A stretch of DNA of 64,000 nt from an uncultured Gammaproteobacteria bacterium (GCA_964540825.1 CAZINT010000004.1:24835-88834); one strand, 5' to 3'. Counted from the first letter of the stretch, positions 2,381 to 60,699 are shown. The notes: generated from the letters alone by a model not told the origin. Program-made: numbers and translations.

Positions 2381-3253
2381 ATGCGACAATACCTCGACAT
2401 TGTTCAGAATGTTTTAGATAACGGACTCGAGAAGGACGATCGCACCGGCGTCGGCACCATCGCTATCCCGGGCGCTTTTTTTCAGCATGATCTTAAAAAC
2501 GGTTTTCCACTTCTTACTACCAAAAAAATTCCGTTTCGCCTCATCGCCACTGAACTCGAATTTTTTATTAAAGGCATCACCGATAAACAGTGGCTCATTG
2601 ATCACAATAATCATATCTGGGATGAATGGGCTCACCCCAAAAAAGCCCCCTACGGCCACGACGAAGCAAGTAAAAAACGCATGCGCGACGAACGCGACCT
2701 CGGGCCGATTTATGGTTTTCAGTGGCGGCACTTTGGCGCCAAGTACGTTTCGTACGATACCGATTATACCGGCCAGGGCGTAGATCAGCTTCAAAACCTG
2801 GTGAACACACTCAAAAAAAATCCATCCGACCGCCGCATGATTGTTAATTCCTGGAACCCGGTCAGCTTGCCAGAAATGGGTTTGCCGCCCTGCCACTATT
2901 GTTACCAAGTAACCGTTATCAAAGGACGCCTCAATTTATTTTGGAACCAACGTTCCGTCGACACCATGCTGGGCCTGCCGTTTAACATTGCCAGCTATGC
3001 GCTTCTCCTCCACCTGCTCGCTAAAGAAGCCGGGCTTGAAGAAGGTGCGCTCACCGGCTTTTTAGCTGATGTACATATTTATAAAAATCACCAAGCCGGA
3101 GCACGCGAACAATTGACGCGCGACCCGAACATGTACCCATTACCAAAACTTGTCACCAACAACTTTACGTCTATTTTCGACTGGAAAGCAGAAGATACCG
3201 AAGTGGTTGGGTACGAAAGCTATCCACGCATCGCTTTTGAAATCGCAGTCTAG
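2381..3253 (+). CDS. thyA: Thymidylate synthase
   Basis: 290 aa; ThyA active-site region with PPCHYCYQ, and DRRMIVNSWNP. Confidence 0.95.
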   Translation: MRQYLDIVQNVLDNGLEKDDRTGVGTIAIPGAFFQHDLKNGFPLLTTKKIPFRLIATELEFFIKGITDKQWLIDHNNHIWDEWAHPKKAPYGHDEASKKRMRDERDLGPIYGFQWRHFGAKYVSYDTDYTGQGVDQLQNLVNTLKKNPSDRRMIVNSWNPVSLPEMGLPPCHYCYQVTVIKGRLNLFWNQRSVDTMLGLPFNIASYALLLHLLAKEAGLEEGALTGFLADVHIYKNHQAGAREQLTRDPNMYPLPKLVTNNFTSIFDWKAEDTEVVGYESYPRIAFEIAV

Positions 3254-23009: not shown

Positions 23010-25985
23010 TTAAATCTTTTTGAGTGCCAAAAATAAATCCGGTACAGTTGATTTCTCATCTGCGCTCCCCGCTTCTAAAGTATCCGCAAGGACAGCGTCT
23101 TTAATCTGTTCACCGCAATCAACTACCACCTTGGCAAGCTCGTCGTTTGACGTAGTGTACCTGACCGCGATCCTATCTTCAATAGTAAATCCTTTTTCTT
23201 TACGTAGCTGATTGATCGCGCGGATAATATCGCGGGCTACACCTTCTTTTTTGAGCGCCTCGTCGATCGCTGTGTCGAGCCAGACTTTTACATCACCGTC
23301 TTCACGCAGCTTCCAGTTGTCACCGGTTACAACTTCACAGACATCGATTGTTTTAACATTCAATTCTTCGGCGATCATGATGTGTAACTCTTTGCTTAAG
23401 TGCTCGTTATTAATCGCGAGCGTATTCAGCGGTTGGCGAACTTTGAGTCCGGTCTCAGCGCGGAGCGCCAGCCCCAGTTCGACAATCTTACGTGCCACCA
23501 ACATTTCCTGAAGCACACCCTGATCATGATGTTCGTCGTGGAGTGCCGGCCAGTGTTCCAGGTGCACACTTTCTTTGGCCCAACCCTTGCCGCCGACTTC
23601 GTCAAAGCGCAATTCCTGATAGATCTTTTCAGCTATGAATGGCGTAAAGGGCGCAATTAATTTGGAGACCACAATTAATACTTCGCGCAAGGTATAGAGC
23701 GCATGATGTTTATCGAGTTCATCAGTGCCTTTGACGCGTTCGCGCGAACGGCGAACGTACCATTGTGAAAGTTCCGTAACGAAAGCAAGAAGCGGCCGGG
23801 CTGCTTCGGCCAAGCGGTAGGCTTCCATATTTTCGGTTACTTCACGAACAGTTTCGTGGAGCATGGCCATAATCCAACGGTCGAGTACATGCGCGGATTT
23901 ATACGGTTTTTGCGTTGGCAGGTCTTTGGCAAACAATTGGTAAAATTCAAAAACATTCCAAAGTGTATTTACCAGTTTGCCATACAATTCTTTAACCCCT
24001 TCTTCAGAAAAATTAAGGCTTTCCGCCGAAACAACCGGCGAACTGACTAAATAAAAGCGCATCGCATCCGCCCCGTATTTTTCGAGGACCATATTTGGGT
24101 CCGGGTAATTTTGGAGTTTCTTACTCATCTTTTTTCCGTCTTCGGCGAGCACGATACCGTTCACGATAACATTTTTATACGCCGGCTTCTCGAAAAGTGC
24201 GGTTGCGAGTACATGTAAGTAATAAAACCACGCCCGAGTTTGATCCTGGCCTTCGGCGATAAACTGAGCCGGGAAATTACTTTCAAACACTGCTTTATTT
24301 TCAAACGGATAATGCGCTTGGGCGTACGGCATACTCCCTGAATCAAACCAGGTGTCGAGCACATCGGGAATACGTTTCATCGTGCCACCACATTTTTCAC
24401 ACGGGAATGTAATAAGGTCAATAATATGTTTATGAAGGTCATCGACTTTCTGACCGCTTACTTTTTCTAATTCTGCAGCTGAACCAAACACAACCACATT
24501 GTCACATTTTTTTTCCTTCTGGTCACACATCCAAATCGGCATCACGCTCGCCCAAAAACGCTGACGGCTCACTGACCAATCGCGAGCGCCTTCGAGCCAC
24601 TTACCAAAACGTCCTTCTTTAATATGTTCAGGTGACCAGTTAATTTCTTTGGCCAGTTCAAGCGCCTTTTCTTTGACAGCAATGACTTTTACAAACCAGG
24701 ATGAAGTCGCATAGTTAATCAGCGGCGTATCGCATCTCCAGCAGTGCGGATAGCTGTGTACAATATTTTTTTTCGCCAAAAACGAACCCTTTTCTTGAAG
24801 ATATTTGGTAATGGCAATGTCCGAAGCAAGCCGGACTTTGTCGTCGTCGCTGCGCGGTTTCACTTCTTGTCCTGCAAAATCAGTGACTTCTGGTTTGAAA
24901 CGACCATCCATACCAACGTGTTGCACGAGCGGCAAACCTTCACGTTTCCCAACTTTAAAGTCATCGTCACCAAAGGCTGGAGCAATATGTACCACACCGC
25001 TACCGTCCTCGGCGGTAACAAAATCGGCCGTGACGACACGGAAAGCATTCGGAGTATCTTTGTAATACGGGAACAAGGGAGCATACGAAGCACCTGCCAG
25101 GAGCGCGCCCGTGACTTCAGCCAGAACAGAATATTTTTTACCTTCGAGCACCTCGGTGATACGATCTTTACCAATAATATACACACCGTTTTCATTCTCA
25201 ATCATACAAACCGCGTAGACCATTTCCGGGTTCACAGCAAGCAAAACATTGCCCGGAAGTGTCCATGGCGTTGTAGTCCAGGCAACCAGATAGACTTTCT
25301 GTTCACTAATAAACTTGCGATCCAGTTCGTTTGGAACATGTTGAAAAAGCTCGGGCGAATAGCTCGTAAGTTCAAATTTTACATAGAGCGAAATATCCTT
25401 CACATCCTTATACCCTTCGCTAACTTCTTGCTGCGACAACGTCGTTTCACAGCGCGGGCAGATATACATGGAACGATAATCTTCGTACACCAGCCCCCTG
25501 TCCCAGAGCTGCTTGAACACCCACCAGACCGACTCCATATAGTCCTTATCCATTGTGCGATAGGCATGATCAAAATCTACCCACCGACCGAGGCGGGTAA
25601 TCGTTTTTTTCCAGTCTTCCACATACCCCAGCACTTTGCTGCGGCAGAGTTCGTTAAATTTGGCGATGCCGAGTGCTTCAATTTCTTTCTTAGTTTTAGT
25701 TCCAAGTTCTTTTTCGACAATATTTTCAATCGGGAGCCCGTGACAATCCCAGCCCCAGCGGCGTTCCACGCGGTACCCCTTCATAGCCCAAAAACGCGGC
25801 ACCACATCTTTCATGAGCGACGAAACAAAATGACCATAGTGCGGCGTGCCGGTGGCAAACGGCGGACCATCATAAAAAACATACGGCTTGTCAGCCGGTT
25901 TTTCGGAAACGGATTTCTCAAAAATATGGTTTTCGGCCCAGAATTTGAGCACTTCATTTTCTTCGTTATTGGCGTTGTAGAGCAT
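23010..25985 (-). CDS. ileS: Isoleucyl-tRNA synthetase (type 2, eukaryote-like)
   Basis: PPFATGTPHYGH (HIGH class I) and KMSKKL; 991 aa. Start placed at MLYNANN: the upstream MRVFYFY codons are the U-tract of the T-box terminator. Confidence 0.95.
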   Translation of the reverse strand: MLYNANNEENEVLKFWAENHIFEKSVSEKPADKPYVFYDGPPFATGTPHYGHFVSSLMKDVVPRFWAMKGYRVERRWGWDCHGLPIENIVEKELGTKTKKEIEALGIAKFNELCRSKVLGYVEDWKKTITRLGRWVDFDHAYRTMDKDYMESVWWVFKQLWDRGLVYEDYRSMYICPRCETTLSQQEVSEGYKDVKDISLYVKFELTSYSPELFQHVPNELDRKFISEQKVYLVAWTTTPWTLPGNVLLAVNPEMVYAVCMIENENGVYIIGKDRITEVLEGKKYSVLAEVTGALLAGASYAPLFPYYKDTPNAFRVVTADFVTAEDGSGVVHIAPAFGDDDFKVGKREGLPLVQHVGMDGRFKPEVTDFAGQEVKPRSDDDKVRLASDIAITKYLQEKGSFLAKKNIVHSYPHCWRCDTPLINYATSSWFVKVIAVKEKALELAKEINWSPEHIKEGRFGKWLEGARDWSVSRQRFWASVMPIWMCDQKEKKCDNVVVFGSAAELEKVSGQKVDDLHKHIIDLITFPCEKCGGTMKRIPDVLDTWFDSGSMPYAQAHYPFENKAVFESNFPAQFIAEGQDQTRAWFYYLHVLATALFEKPAYKNVIVNGIVLAEDGKKMSKKLQNYPDPNMVLEKYGADAMRFYLVSSPVVSAESLNFSEEGVKELYGKLVNTLWNVFEFYQLFAKDLPTQKPYKSAHVLDRWIMAMLHETVREVTENMEAYRLAEAARPLLAFVTELSQWYVRRSRERVKGTDELDKHHALYTLREVLIVVSKLIAPFTPFIAEKIYQELRFDEVGGKGWAKESVHLEHWPALHDEHHDQGVLQEMLVARKIVELGLALRAETGLKVRQPLNTLAINNEHLSKELHIMIAEELNVKTIDVCEVVTGDNWKLREDGDVKVWLDTAIDEALKKEGVARDIIRAINQLRKEKGFTIEDRIAVRYTTSNDELAKVVVDCGEQIKDAVLADTLEAGSADEKSTVPDLFLALKKI

Positions 25986-26217
25986 ATAAAAATAAAAAAC
26001 ACGCACAAATTTGGCGTGTCGAGAGCCCCTTAGGGCGGTACCATCTCGGCATTATTACTTAATTTGCAGCTGTAACGGGCTTGCCCGGAATAGTCTACTT
26101 TTGGCTTCATAGAGCCAATTTCTTTACTCAGCAGCCCACCAAAAGTAGTGAGTTCCGGGTGATAGCCCGGAAATCTGCCTCTAGGCTTAGTATAGATAAA
26201 AAAACATCAAACGTCAA
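25986..26217 (-). ncRNA. T-box riboswitch leader of ileS (transcription-termination type)
   Basis: All on the minus strand. Promoter TTGACG-17-TATACT (plus 26212-26217 and 26189-26194). A small hairpin CCGGG-CUAUCA-CCCGG displays AUC-A, an Ile codon plus the following purine. The T-box consensus AAUGCCGAGAUGGUACCGCCC forms an antiterminator with the 7-nt bulge UGGUACC (helix CGAGA/UCUCG, GCCC/GGGC). It is followed by terminator ACACGC...GCGUGU and a U9 tract ending at the ileS ATG. Confidence 0.65.
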
Positions 26218-26285
26218 TAATTAATTTAGTTGCTATGCCGCGACTAAATTGATATACTAAATTTTATATTCTAAGGGAAAACTGT

Positions 26286-26729
26286 ATGATTTACATTGGC
26301 GCAGATCACCGCGGCCACGCCCTCAAAAAATACCTTATTCGCTACCTCGAAAAACAGCTTAAACGCGAAGTAATTGATTTTGGTGCGCTCAGTTACGATG
26401 AAAATGATGATTTCGTTGATTTTGCTGTTCCGGTTGCCAAAAAAGTTGCTGCCGAACCAGGTAGCCTTGGCATACTCCTCTGTGGTAATGGCCAGGGTAT
26501 GTGTATCGCTGCCAACAAAGTACCGGGCGTCAGGGCCATGCTTGGTCATAGCATCGAAAGCGCCGAATTTACACGTCGCGAAGACGATGCCAATATTATT
26601 TGTCTGCCGGCCCGTACCATGAGCGACGAACACGCTACCGCAATTGTCAAAACTTTTTTAGAAACTGAATTTAGCGGTGAAGAAAAAAGAGTTCGCCGTC
26701 TTAACAAAATTGCAGCACTGGAAAAATAA
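26286..26729 (+). CDS. rpiB: Ribose-5-phosphate isomerase B
   Basis: RpiB/LacAB motifs (GADHRG, CGNGQGM); 147 aa. Promoter TTGCTA-17-TATACT upstream. Confidence 0.9.
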   Translation: MIYIGADHRGHALKKYLIRYLEKQLKREVIDFGALSYDENDDFVDFAVPVAKKVAAEPGSLGILLCGNGQGMCIAANKVPGVRAMLGHSIESAEFTRREDDANIICLPARTMSDEHATAIVKTFLETEFSGEEKRVRRLNKIAALEK

Positions 26730-26730
26730 T

Positions 26731-27369
26731 ATGATTATTACTCCCGCGCTTCTCAACACTACCTTTGAAGACTTTGCCCGTGATGTCAAAAAAGTTGAAG
26801 GACTTTTTTCGTACGCTCAAATCGATGTCATGGACGGCGCGTTTGTACCAAATACGTCTTTTACCGAGATTGATAAAATTAATACTCTCGAATCATCGCT
26901 CAAATGGGAATTACACCTCATGGTAGCGCATCCACTCGCTGAACTTTCCAAATGGCCTAACGTTACAAATGTTTTCCGTATTATTTTTCACGCAGAATCA
27001 AGTGACGACCCCGCATCGGTGGTTGCTTGGGCACGAGAAAGACGGCTCGAAATTGGTGTAGCGCTTAACCCGGAAACACCGCTTGAAAAAATAAATAACT
27101 ACAAAGAACAATTGAATGTTGTGCAATTCATGACCGTGCACCCGGGTCACCAAGGTAATCCATTTTTACCCGAAGTACTCGAAAAAATAAAAGCATTTAC
27201 GAATGTAGCTGATCGCGCGTTTTGTTCAGTCGACGGTGGTGTGAGCAGTGCAAATATCGCCTTGCTCCAAAAAGCCGGAGTAGATATTGCGAATGTTGGT
27301 AGCACGCTCCTAAAGAGTACTGACATACAGAGCACTTATACAACACTAGAAAGTCTTATTAAGAAATGA
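26731..27369 (+). CDS. rpe: Ribulose-phosphate 3-epimerase-like
   Basis: IDVMDGAFVPN motif and the TIM-barrel pattern. Confidence 0.75.
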   Translation: MIITPALLNTTFEDFARDVKKVEGLFSYAQIDVMDGAFVPNTSFTEIDKINTLESSLKWELHLMVAHPLAELSKWPNVTNVFRIIFHAESSDDPASVVAWARERRLEIGVALNPETPLEKINNYKEQLNVVQFMTVHPGHQGNPFLPEVLEKIKAFTNVADRAFCSVDGGVSSANIALLQKAGVDIANVGSTLLKSTDIQSTYTTLESLIKK

Positions 27370-27382
27370 TTATAAATCCAGT

Positions 27383-28333
27383 ATGCTTGATCTCGTTATC
27401 ATCGGAGGAGCCGCTGTTGGCTGCAGCGCTGCTGTCTACGCCGCCCGCCGCAAACTCAACTTTGTCATGATCACCGAAAATATCGGCGGTGAAGTCGCGC
27501 TCTCGGGAGCCGTGGGTAATTGGCCGGGTATTATTGATATTCAGGGCTTTGAGCTCGCTAATAAATTTGCCGAACATGCCCGCAGTTACGGCGTAAACAT
27601 CGAAGAAGGCTGGACTGTGACGTCGATTGTACCTACTAAAAATTACCACGTTATTACTGCCACCAAGGCTAACGGCGAAACTCGCACGATCGAAACTAAA
27701 TCAGTTATCATCGGCACCGGGATTCATCCTCGTCGCCTGGGCGTCCCTGGTGAAGACATCTTTGATCATAAAGGTGTTACCTACTGCACCGTTTGTGATG
27801 GCCCTATTTTTAAAAATAAAATTACAGCTACCCTCGGTGGCGGCAATAGCGGCCTCGAATCCGCGCTCATGATGGCGGGTATTGCTAAACAAGTCTATCT
27901 TTTAACTAAATACCCAAACACCCCCGAACATGCCGGCGGCTTTCCAAAAGGCGAAGCCATCTTGGTTGACAAGCTGAAAGCACTGCCAAATGTTGAAATA
28001 CTGTACGAAGCAATTACGACTGAAATTACCGGCGAACAAAAAGTAAACGGTCTTGTCTATAAAACCCCGACAGGCGAAACAAAATCACTTGCGCTCGATG
28101 CCGTCATGGTGCATATCGGCATGATCCCTAATTCTAAATTTGTTAAAGACGTTGTTGCGCTCGACAAGCAGGGCCAGATCATCGCCGACACTAAATGCCG
28201 CACCAACGTACCTGGTATCTTTGCAGCCGGCGATGTGACCGATATTCCGTACAAACAAATCGGCATCGCTGCCGGACAAGGTATTGTCGCCGCGCTGGCC
28301 GCGATTGAATATGTTAATCTTTGGAAAGAATAG
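27383..28333 (+). CDS. trxB: Thioredoxin reductase-like FAD/NAD(P)H disulfide oxidoreductase
   Basis: GGxAxGCSAA FAD motif, redox CTVCDG motif, and GGGNSG. Confidence 0.8.
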   Translation: MLDLVIIGGAAVGCSAAVYAARRKLNFVMITENIGGEVALSGAVGNWPGIIDIQGFELANKFAEHARSYGVNIEEGWTVTSIVPTKNYHVITATKANGETRTIETKSVIIGTGIHPRRLGVPGEDIFDHKGVTYCTVCDGPIFKNKITATLGGGNSGLESALMMAGIAKQVYLLTKYPNTPEHAGGFPKGEAILVDKLKALPNVEILYEAITTEITGEQKVNGLVYKTPTGETKSLALDAVMVHIGMIPNSKFVKDVVALDKQGQIIADTKCRTNVPGIFAAGDVTDIPYKQIGIAAGQGIVAALAAIEYVNLWKE

Positions 28334-53608: not shown

Positions 53609-54814
53609 CTACGGGGTATAGCGGAGCAGTCGCCCGACGAGTGTAGCCCCCGGCTTTCCGTCTTGCCCGGCCGGCCGTGTTATGACTATCACCTGATCCC
53701 TCCCAAAGGCAGCGAGGCTCGCTCCGGTGATTTTGGGATCAAGATCAAGATGGTGCGACGGATAACCCGTACTATCAACAGCTACAAAACGAGCGTACGT
53801 GTTGCCGACCTGCGGCACGACTGCCACCAGCTGTTTGACGCCGGGGAGCGTCAAAAAGGTGGTACCCGGCAGATACGGTACCGGCTCCTCCGCCGGCAGC
53901 TCGATTTTTTGGTCACTGTAGCCGATGATAGAGAGTAGCGACCCGGCATCGTTTCTCCAAGCCGCTGCCAGACCGGCCCCGTGCGTGTGGAGGCTTTGGC
54001 CCTGGATAGCAGTGTTCTTATACAGATCACTGCACGAAGTCGTACCATCAACCAGGTTGGTTCGCCGGTCGAGCAGGATGTCAGCGACCGTATCGACACC
54101 ACTGTAGCGCACGCCCGCATACACAACCACTGCCAGACGAAGCTCGAGAGCAATCCCCGTATCACCATTTTTCAGGAAGCGGCGATAGAGAATACCCACT
54201 CGACGTTCGACAGTGTTGTTTCCAAAGGTGAGCGGCGCCAGGCTATCAGCGACCGGTGCACACAATTGTTGCTGCCCGCCGTTTGGCAACACGGCGTTTC
54301 CCTCATTAAAGGGCTCGCCACTAGAATCGAAAGCGAACAGACGCAAGCCAGCGGTTGTCAGCTCCGGCCTCGGGGTCATAGCGACACAGAAGCCGCTATG
54401 GCAGGCAGCAACGCTTGCATGTGCATCGTTTCCCACCCGTTGGAGCCCACCCTTGTAGTCCCGCAGGGTGAAGCCGAGCGCACTACCCATCAAGACTGCG
54501 TCGTTACTATTCGCAAAACTCGTTGGCATGCCGACCGACGCCCCTGTGCTGGGCGGGCTGGCTACATGCCAATCCCCGGATGCCGGCAGAAAGGGCTGGT
54601 AGGAGCTGTCACTTGCAACCAGCCAGCACCAGGCAGTGCCCAAGCACAGCGGCGTCGGGACCCCAGGACTTGTTGCCGGCCACGAGGCCTCGTAAACTCG
54701 CGAAAAGCTGGCGGCAGGCCCGTCGGCCCCGCCGCGGTCAGAGGTGACGGACGGAGCAGCATCAGCCCCGCAACCCACAGCAGCGACCAGAGCGATCAAC
54801 CATAAACGAACCAT
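53609..54814 (-). CDS. Secreted lipoprotein, function unknown, in a ~62% GC island
   Basis: Signal peptide with a lipobox (LVAAVGC); Gly/Ser/Ala/Thr-rich 401 aa. Perfect Shine-Dalgarno AAGGAGGTG 5 nt upstream of the ATG. Confidence 0.5.
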   Translation of the reverse strand: MVRLWLIALVAAVGCGADAAPSVTSDRGGADGPAASFSRVYEASWPATSPGVPTPLCLGTAWCWLVASDSSYQPFLPASGDWHVASPPSTGASVGMPTSFANSNDAVLMGSALGFTLRDYKGGLQRVGNDAHASVAACHSGFCVAMTPRPELTTAGLRLFAFDSSGEPFNEGNAVLPNGGQQQLCAPVADSLAPLTFGNNTVERRVGILYRRFLKNGDTGIALELRLAVVVYAGVRYSGVDTVADILLDRRTNLVDGTTSCSDLYKNTAIQGQSLHTHGAGLAAAWRNDAGSLLSIIGYSDQKIELPAEEPVPYLPGTTFLTLPGVKQLVAVVPQVGNTYARFVAVDSTGYPSHHLDLDPKITGASLAAFGRDQVIVITRPAGQDGKPGATLVGRLLRYTP

Positions 54815-60624: not shown

Positions 60625-60627
60625 TTG

Positions 60628-60699
60628 AGCGGGTGACGGGAGTCGAACCCGTGTCACCAGTTTGGAAAACTGGGATAATAGCCGTTATATGACACCCGC
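60628..60699 (-). tRNA. tRNA-Gly (anticodon UCC)
   Basis: Manual fold: acceptor stem GCGGGTG/CACCCGC, anticodon stem CCAGT/ACTGG with loop TTTCCAA, T-arm ACGGG-TTCGACT-CCCGT, discriminator U. CCA is not encoded. Confidence 0.85.

Follow-up and report, generated by a model that had tools for sequence, protein, structure and literature searches.

A probable T-box riboswitch with an AUC specifier in the ileS leader of a Patescibacteria-type bacterium

We analysed a 64,000-nucleotide stretch of bacterial DNA (hereafter the window) and found that the leader preceding ileS on the minus strand is quite probably a T-box riboswitch that senses tRNA-Ile and controls ileS, with transcription attenuation as its most probable output. 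An earlier note on the same DNA had proposed that this leader is a T-box whose specifier is AUC, with a UGGU-ACC bulge and a terminator, and the conservation and covariation that we observed in 27 leaders, collected with a covariance model (R1), uphold that proposal. The expression platform differs from the canonical one. The features of the leader and the gene are listed in Table 1.

Table 1. Features of the ileS leader and gene in the window (positions counted from the first letter of the window)
Feature	Position (strand)	Sequence or detail
Promoter, sigma-70-type	26189..26217 (-)	-35 TTGACG 26217-26212; 17-nt spacer; -10 TATACT 26194-26189
Leader	26180-25988 (-)	precedes ileS; ~195 nt
Stem I domain, three-way junction	26130..26179 (-)	basal helix P0, specifier hairpin and inserted hairpin P1b
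Helix P0	26179-26175 with 26134-26130 (-)	GGCAG with CUGCU; covaries
Specifier hairpin	26155..26170 (-)	CCGGG-CUAUCA-CCCGG; AUC 26163-26161 and purine A 26160 in apical loop
P1b hairpin	26152-26135 (-)	inserted into stem I
Stem II	26088..26129 (-)	lower helix GAGUA/UAUUC; S-turn strands; upper hairpin
Stem II S-turn strands	26124-26119; 26100-26093 (-)	AAGAAA; AAGUAGAC
Stem II upper hairpin	26118-26101 (-)	UUGGCU..AGCCAA
Stem IIA/B pseudoknot	26068..26087 (-)	IIA CGG 26087-26085 with CCG; IIB loop AGC with GCU 26070-26068
F-box	26078-26073 (-)	CCGUUA, within the IIA/B pseudoknot, CGG-GCAAGC-CCGUUA-..-GCU
Linker, purine string	26051..26067 (-)	GCAAAUUAAGUAAUAAU, 17 nt; AAG...AA kept
T-box sequence	26053-26033 (-)	AAUGCCGAGAUGGUACCGCCC
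Discriminator core	26018..26050 (-)	A1, bulge, A2
Helix A1	26050-26044; 26024-26018 (-)	5' strand GCCGAGA; 3' strand UCUCGAC; inner CGAGA/UCUCG
T-box bulge	26043-26037 (-)	UGGUACC, 7 nt; UGGU edge adjoins A1
Helix A2	26036-26025 (-)	GCCC-UAAG-GGGC
Terminator-like hairpin	26020-25998 (-)	GACACGCCA..UGuGCGUGUU; its opening GAC is also the final 3 nt of the A1 3' strand
U-rich tract	25999-25988 (-)	U6AU5; ends 3 nt before ATG 25985
ileS CDS	23010..25985 (-)	991 aa; start ATG 25985-25983; TIGR00392 908.7 bits

Results

Homologous leaders and covariation

We searched with the IleRS N-terminus, taking one genome per species, and obtained 80 loci. A leader profile detected 24 leaders upstream of ileS, with a single match in the window and no leader in the spirochaete loci (L058-L080), and a protein search supplied four further leaders. 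An nhmmer profile built without members of the window's clade matched 26166-26015 (E = 1.9e-16), and another, built from six relatives with canonical terminators, matched the window at E = 5e-7.

R1 was constructed with a structure line that we supplied ourselves, its input being ten relatives that do not belong to the window's clade. The model matched end to end at 26018-26180 on the minus strand, and on that strand only, with 69.1 bits (E ~ 3e-20), and from 85 sources it retrieved 27 leaders, which lie upstream of ileS in Patescibacteria genomes. A second R1 match at 2428-2577 (-), with 13.8 bits, is probably noise: it has UGGUGCC and a closing helix, no stem I, and lies antisense within an ORF at 2381-3253.

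To count covariation, the helix cores of 21 leaders were aligned by hand, each field being checked as an ordered substring of the real sequence. The results showed that 98.6% of cells were paired and that 27 of the 31 pairs carried a compensatory change, while controls in which the 3' partner was slid by 1-3 columns were 31-47% paired. Since this curated alignment had been fitted by hand, the count was repeated on the model-made alignment of 27 leaders, which was 88.3% paired compared with 27-52% in slid controls and showed compensatory change in 27 of 30 pairs. Both alignments were used because MAFFT alone misaligned the helices. The strand was fixed as minus by the G-U pairs in the helices, which read as C.A mismatches on the other strand.

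The tRNA-contacting motifs were all kept over IleRS identities from 97% down to ~50%. At the upper end stands a metagenome contig (L201:675-934) whose IleRS N-terminus is 97% identical to that of the window and whose ileS call ends at 210 aa. Its leader carries paired substitutions in P0, stem I and P1b (ACAG/CUGU, UCUGG/CCAGA and UCCAU/AUGGA) and a shorter A2 loop than the window's. Such paired changes are what selection on structure predicts, and they indicate that the leader evolves fast under structural constraint. When metagenomes were scanned for the exact 14-mer GCCGAGATGGTACC, 120 stretches came back; none of them matched the leader profile, and we therefore regard them as chance occurrences.

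Decoding module

The 5' half of the leader consists of stem I, stem II and the IIA/B pseudoknot. The earlier note had placed AUC-A in a CCGGG...CCCGG hairpin, and this hairpin is present, with a 5-bp stem and a 6-nt loop (6-7 nt in relatives). In the 21-leader alignment, AUC was invariant and obeyed the NNC rule, the next nucleotide was a purine in all leaders except one (20/21), and the specifier stem showed compensatory changes at all four pairs. The P0 pairings across relatives were GCAG/CUGC, ACAG/CUGU, ACAC/GUGU, GCGC/GCGC and UCUU/GAGA. In most relatives a hairpin occupies the place of P1b but has an unrelated sequence; L026, L029, L044 and L050 lack it.

No K-turn was found at the base of stem I in the window, where the sequence runs GGCAG-AUUU-CCGGG...CCCGG-AA-[P1b]-CUGCU and contains no tandem G.A pairs. 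Relatives without P1b (L029, L044) show AGC-NNN-GA-stem-GA-GCU where the window has its three-way junction. The note had also suggested GA/AGAG elements in stem I, which does not hold: the corresponding stretch, CCUAGAGG at 26186-26179, is found upstream of the first helix and shows no conservation among relatives, and there is no GA motif.

Stem II covaried in both its lower and its upper helix, and in its S-turn UAGA was invariant and GAA nearly invariant in the 21-leader alignment. The pseudoknot showed compensatory variants in IIB (AGC/GCU, GGC/GCC, UGC/GCA, ACG/CGU and GGU/ACC) and, in IIA, a change from CGG/CCG to CGC/GCG in L036. A helix between the F-box CGUUA and UAAYG before A1, which appeared in some minimum-free-energy (MFE) folds, was rejected, being missing from L004 and L201.

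We compared the module with the Nocardia farcinica ileS leader, in whose numbering U6 lies in the K-turn bulge, followed by C18 and A19, G37-A38-A39, G67..A69-G70-A71 and the F-box 87-CCGUCA-92, with stems I and II joined by a linker of zero length. Counted from P0, L029 (without P1b) reads AGC-AUU-GA, with U6 in a 3-nt bulge, AUC at 16-18, A19 and G37-A38-A39. Its GUAGA and CCGUAA fall nine positions earlier than in N. farcinica because its upper stem II is shorter. Relatives lacking P1b run nearly nucleotide for nucleotide with the published numbering, which suggests that the decoding module is that of class III.

Discriminator, linker and stem III

The near-consensus T-box sequence reported earlier was found on the minus strand as described (Table 1), and the antiterminator with the 7-nt bulge UGGUACC was returned by folding: RNAfold (MFE) and RNAalifold on eight unedited leaders both gave A1, the bulge and A2. 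The bulge was UGGUACC in every leader read through the discriminator, and A1 and A2 covaried across relatives. The outer A1 positions of the window hold merely one C.A mismatch and one G-C pair, and L001 and L002, the two closest species-level relatives, need a bulged C for the extended A1.

The U at position N of UGGN in every discriminator read predicts a tRNA-Ile with A73, and bacterial tRNA-Ile has A73. No tRNA-Ile gene was found in the window or in loci L001-L057; the window's only tRNA gene is tRNA-Gly(UCC) at 60627-60699 (-).

No stem III hairpin was found in the linker of the window (AAG-UAAU-AA-U), and the same was true of all 10 window-type leaders. Relatives of types O and M mostly have a stem III, of 3-4 bp (e.g. 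GCC-ACUU-GGC) or 70-95 nt; L044 and L050, both of type O, also lack it.

Expression platform

The earlier note had described a terminator with a U9 tract running up to the ileS start. The hairpin and the tract are both present, the tract being U6AU5 and not U9. A simple terminator scan omits the hairpin, which is interrupted by a bulged U; the uninterrupted reading gives a 9-nt loop. The arms of the hairpin covary among relatives (ACACGC/GCGUGU, CACGCU/AGCGUG, ACACCU/AGGUGU and CCACC/GGUGG). In the window the hairpin is weak, at -9.7 kcal/mol compared with -17 to -27 kcal/mol in relatives, and values in the window's group range from -6.7 to -9.7 kcal/mol according to the number of basal nucleotides included.

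The platform is unlike the canonical one, as terminator and antiterminator share at most 3 nt. In the MFE fold of the window's leader, and in those of its group, A1 (5 bp), A2 and the complete hairpin all form together, indicating that the switch is not the usual all-or-none competition. The 3-nt overlap GAC (26020-26018) is conserved and accounts for roughly half of the hairpin's stability: the hairpin, otherwise at -8 to -10 kcal/mol, retained only -2.3 to -4.8 kcal/mol in 10 of 10 window-type leaders when the last 3 nt of A1 were held.

A hairpin and a U-run lie downstream of the discriminator in all leaders, with the next start codon 13 nt to more than 300 nt away. The distance is 13 nt in the window, L001, L002, L005, L009 and L011; in L006, L007, L013, L202 and the Moran-type loci the next start stands at a distance of 100-330 nt or is that of another gene. 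That the hairpin and U-run are kept whatever the distance to the start codon argues for termination and not for start-site masking.

The terminators follow three designs. In design 1, that of the Moran-type leaders, the terminator is of the textbook kind, its 5' arm being the 3' strands of A1 (and A2), with -17 to -27 kcal/mol. In design 2 (L008, L010, L011, L013, L026, L044, L050, L203 and L204), the U-run is preceded by a 3' arm, (A)GUGG, whose partner is CCAC(U), a segment that serves as the 5' arm of stem III or lies just 5' of A1; such a terminator encloses the whole A1-bulge-A2, and its competition would be with stem III and the purine string. Design 3 comprises the window, L201, L001, L002, L004-L007 and L202, with L009 similar. 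Here stem III is reduced to AAG-UAAU-AA, and a local hairpin begins in the last 3 nt of a 7-position A1. For the A1 strands, the window has GCCGAGA/UCUCGAC with one C.A mismatch, L004 has GUUAAGA/UCUUAAC and L202 has GUUGAGA/UCUCAGC. An alternative partner for the terminator arms was sought elsewhere in the leader, and nothing conserved was found; AACGCC just 5' of A1 pairs with GGUGUU in L005-L007, and the pairing is unconvincing in the window, L001, L002 and L004.

RF00230 and motif statistics

The Rfam T-box model RF00230 gave no match in the window at its gathering threshold (93 bits), nor at E<=10 on 25900-26320 (421 nt), and the threshold was reached in none of 20 related loci. A score below threshold in 25986-26217, the stretch that the earlier note had advised scanning, is formally the outcome it had named as speaking against a T-box. 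TBDB built a custom model for short-stem-I ileS T-boxes, kept RF00230 for the transcriptional class and applied the custom model to Actinobacteria only (10.1101/2020.06.17.157016). Since a custom model was needed there, and since the clearly canonical relative L031 scores just 38.9 bits against the cut-off of 93 (E = 2e-7 in a 311-nt search), we judge the failure to be a blind spot of RF00230 for short-stem-I ileS T-boxes and no refutation. In L031 the model aligns the S-turn/AGUA of stem II, IIA and the F-box (CGGGUAAGCCCGUAA), stem III, and GGUGGUACC with A1 and A2.

The window contains two copies of the core motif RRGRTGGNACC, where 0.53 would be expected. The second perfect core, AAGGTGGTACC at 53856-53866 (+), was set down to chance, as it sits within an ORF of 401 aa encoded on the opposite strand and has no leader context. 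The core motif alone is thus not above chance, and the significance of the leader comes from position, structure and conservation.

The ileS locus, its neighbours and its host

The ileS promoter matched the consensus at 10 of 12 positions in a promoter scan and places the predicted transcription start near 26182. An equivalent promoter, TTGAC(A/T)-17-TAnnnT, stands at the same place in most relatives. The encoded IleRS has the Pfam domains tRNA-synt_1, Anticodon_1 and DUF5915; the DUF5915 C-terminus and a strong similarity to MupA/MupB are consistent with the type-2 IleRS that the note had named. The longest ileS ORF opens at GTG 26006, within the terminator-like hairpin. Homologues all open at ATG (MLYNAN.. 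or MPYNA..), an N-terminus common to the IleRS of the window, and the note was right to call the annotated start spurious.

No Shine-Dalgarno sequence was found before ATG 25985, which directly follows U6AU5AU; ileS in most relatives likewise lacks one. The divergent rpiB (26286-26729, +) has AAGGGA 8 nt ahead of its ATG and opens a pentose-phosphate/redox cluster (26286-28333, +) of rpiB, rpe and a thioredoxin-reductase-like gene. At 26230-26258 there is a promoter-like site on the plus strand that has an extended -10.

Gene order varies among relatives. In Moranbacteria-type loci (L031:2312-2857, L025:2160-2687; also L040 and L057) the T-box is followed by an ORF of 175-181 aa and then by ileS. 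This ORF contains a Trp-repressor domain (PF01371, E ~ 1e-17), and its place between T-box and ileS suggests that the leader may control a small operon. Other intervening genes (L054:2499-2942, L067:1889-2503, L007:1278-1829 and L050:2102-2974) are those for a NUDIX protein and a histidine-phosphatase-family protein, together with two ORFs that match no Pfam family. The genome of L012, a related member of the Patescibacteria, has ileS without a T-box and carries a SAM-I riboswitch (RF00162, 46.3 bits, above threshold) at 1824-1933, ~1.1 kb upstream of ileS.

The nearest loci by IleRS belong to Patescibacteria (Magasanik-, Falkow- and Moranbacteria). These data support a candidate-phyla-radiation (CPR; Patescibacteria) bacterium as the host of the window and agree with the reduced lineage that the note had assumed. 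Among the closest relatives (L001-L019 and others), many third-party MAG titles read 'uncultured Gammaproteobacteria', 'Bdellovibrionales' or 'Saccharibacteria'; these look like placeholders or mislabels, because the IleRS and the leaders group with Magasanik-, Falkow- and Moranbacteria.

Discussion

Proposed mechanism and alternatives

We propose that the transcript would begin at the predicted start and that its 5' half would fold into a class III-type decoding module, in which the apical loop of the short stem I would present AUC-A, the stem II S-turn would clamp the codon-anticodon duplex and the IIA/B pseudoknot would complete the module. This module would take the GAU anticodon of tRNA-Ile, and UGGU of the bulge would pair with the free ACCA-3' of uncharged tRNA-Ile and stack on A1. 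Without uncharged tRNA, GAC of the A1 3' strand would join the downstream hairpin abutting U6AU5, and transcription would terminate 3-15 nt ahead of the ATG. With uncharged tRNA, A1 would be closed at all seven positions and the hairpin would lose its three basal pairs, leading to read-through into ileS. That uncharged tRNA-Ile may keep 3 nt in A1 and so disable a deliberately weak terminator is the least secure step of this scheme.

A different output is conceivable for the same T-box, namely that the hairpin and U-tract are not the regulated element and that the leader acts on translation initiation in the U-rich start region or on mRNA stability, or contains a constitutive partial terminator or pause. 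The compatibility of antiterminator and hairpin in the MFE fold would fit such an output, as would a window ATG that lies 13 nt past the hairpin and lacks a Shine-Dalgarno sequence, and class III T-boxes have been described as mostly translational (PMC10482949). We nevertheless consider it unlikely, because there is no Shine-Dalgarno or anti-Shine-Dalgarno pairing to sequester, the start codon lies outside the hairpin, and the hairpin and U-run are kept where the next start is 100-330 nt off or belongs to another gene (L006, L007, L013 and L202). The classical overlapping terminators of the Moran-type relatives point the same way, and attenuation by tRNA-Ile remains our preferred reading.

Far less probable is a structured ileS leader that does not sense tRNA, for example an operator bound by IleRS in which the resemblance of the bulge to a T-box is coincidental or a relic. 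What the loop displays is the codon AUC and not an anticodon mimic; joint conservation extends over AUC with its purine, the UGGU-ACC next to A1, the S-turn and the F-box pseudoknot; and the leader has significant homology to leaders that RF00230 does recognise. Such an operator would account for the lack of an RF00230 match in the window and for the absence there of stem III and the K-turn, both reported to be essential. Chance resemblance, or a plus-strand feature of the divergent rpiB, is refuted by the comparative data and barely deserves credence. Chance could draw on the excess of the core motif over expectation, but it does not produce 27 homologous leaders with compensatory changes. 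The earlier note had asked whether a plus-strand reading toward rpiB scores better, and it does not: R1 matches the minus strand only, neither strand of this region has an Rfam hit near its family's threshold, the only ones on the plus strand scoring 13.0 bits (cut-off 37.3) and 14.8 bits (cut-off 50), the helix G-U pairs would be lost as C.A mismatches, and the leader stays with ileS where rpiB is not its neighbour.

Novelty and implications

T-boxes are regarded as characteristic of Firmicutes, Actinobacteria, Chloroflexi and Deinococcus-Thermus. Our literature search on T-boxes with CPR, Patescibacteria or Parcubacteria found nothing relevant, though an earlier mention may exist. CPR leaders have probably gone unrecorded because RF00230 misses them and the TBDB custom model was run on Actinobacteria only. 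We therefore put forward, tentatively and with somewhat more doubt than confidence, that Patescibacteria harbour an unrecorded lineage of ileS T-boxes that combines a class III decoding module, hitherto linked to translational control in Actinobacteria, with intrinsic terminators. In the window's clade, this lineage would have neither a stem III hairpin nor a K-turn and would rely on a 3-nt overlap; in sister clades, the terminator would enclose A1-bulge-A2, its competitors being stem III and the sequence 5' of A1.

If this is true, co-transcriptional tRNA sensing needs neither contact with the tRNA elbow nor stem III, and the short-stem-I design is old and widespread, which bears on the question of which T-box class came first. 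The CPR leaders would add a deep-branching data point on the ancestral class, and the leader of the window would represent a natural minimal discriminator. Surveys based on RF00230 miss this whole group of CPR ileS leaders. Reduced genomes would also be seen to retain amino-acid-specific feedback on translation capacity in at least one case.

Comparison with known systems

Published work sets out three rules for T-boxes. Stem III is described as an integral and indispensable part of the discriminator for binding the tRNA 3' end, a long stem I gripping the tRNA elbow is generally required in transcriptional T-boxes, and short-stem-I T-boxes need a K-turn (PMC7583486). Judged by their sequences, the leader of the window and its relatives appear to depart from the rules on the long stem I, stem III and the K-turn, yet they keep every tRNA-contacting motif.

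The E. coli thrS operator resembles the leader of the window in being a structured leader ahead of a synthetase gene. It differs in that ThrRS binds it as a mimic of the tRNA anticodon arm, whereas the leader of the window displays a codon and a putative bulge for binding the tRNA 3' end.

Class III T-boxes have a short stem I without a distal platform and a specifier in a small apical loop, and classes III and IV mostly regulate translation (PMC10482949). With the class III actinobacterial ileS leaders (Nocardia farcinica and Mycobacterium tuberculosis), our leader shares the regulated gene, the short stem I without an elbow-binding platform, AUC and A in an apical loop of 6-7 nt, and a junction of zero or one nucleotide to stem II. 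It also shares the S-turn (GAA / GUAGA), the compact IIA/B pseudoknot, the F-box CCGU(U/A/C)A and the UGGU-ACC bulge between A1 and A2. In contrast to class III, where the output is mostly a Shine-Dalgarno sequestrator, the window ends in a hairpin and a U-tract; its clade lacks stem III, a three-way junction (P0, specifier hairpin and P1b) replaces the K-turn, and the host is a member of the Patescibacteria and not of the Actinobacteria.

With the canonical transcriptional T-boxes (RF00230; Bacillus subtilis tyrS and glyQS, classes I/II), the leader has in common its location 5' of a synthetase gene, a sigma-70-type promoter, the T-box sequence, the A1-bulge-A2 geometry and an intrinsic terminator, and it agrees with class I in stem II and IIA/B. 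The Moran-type relatives show the classical arrangement, in which the 3' strands of A1 and A2 form the 5' arm of the terminator. Unlike the canonical T-boxes, the window has no long stem I, no specifier placed within an internal loop and no distal double T-loop, and its terminator, which is far weaker, shares just 3 nt with A1.
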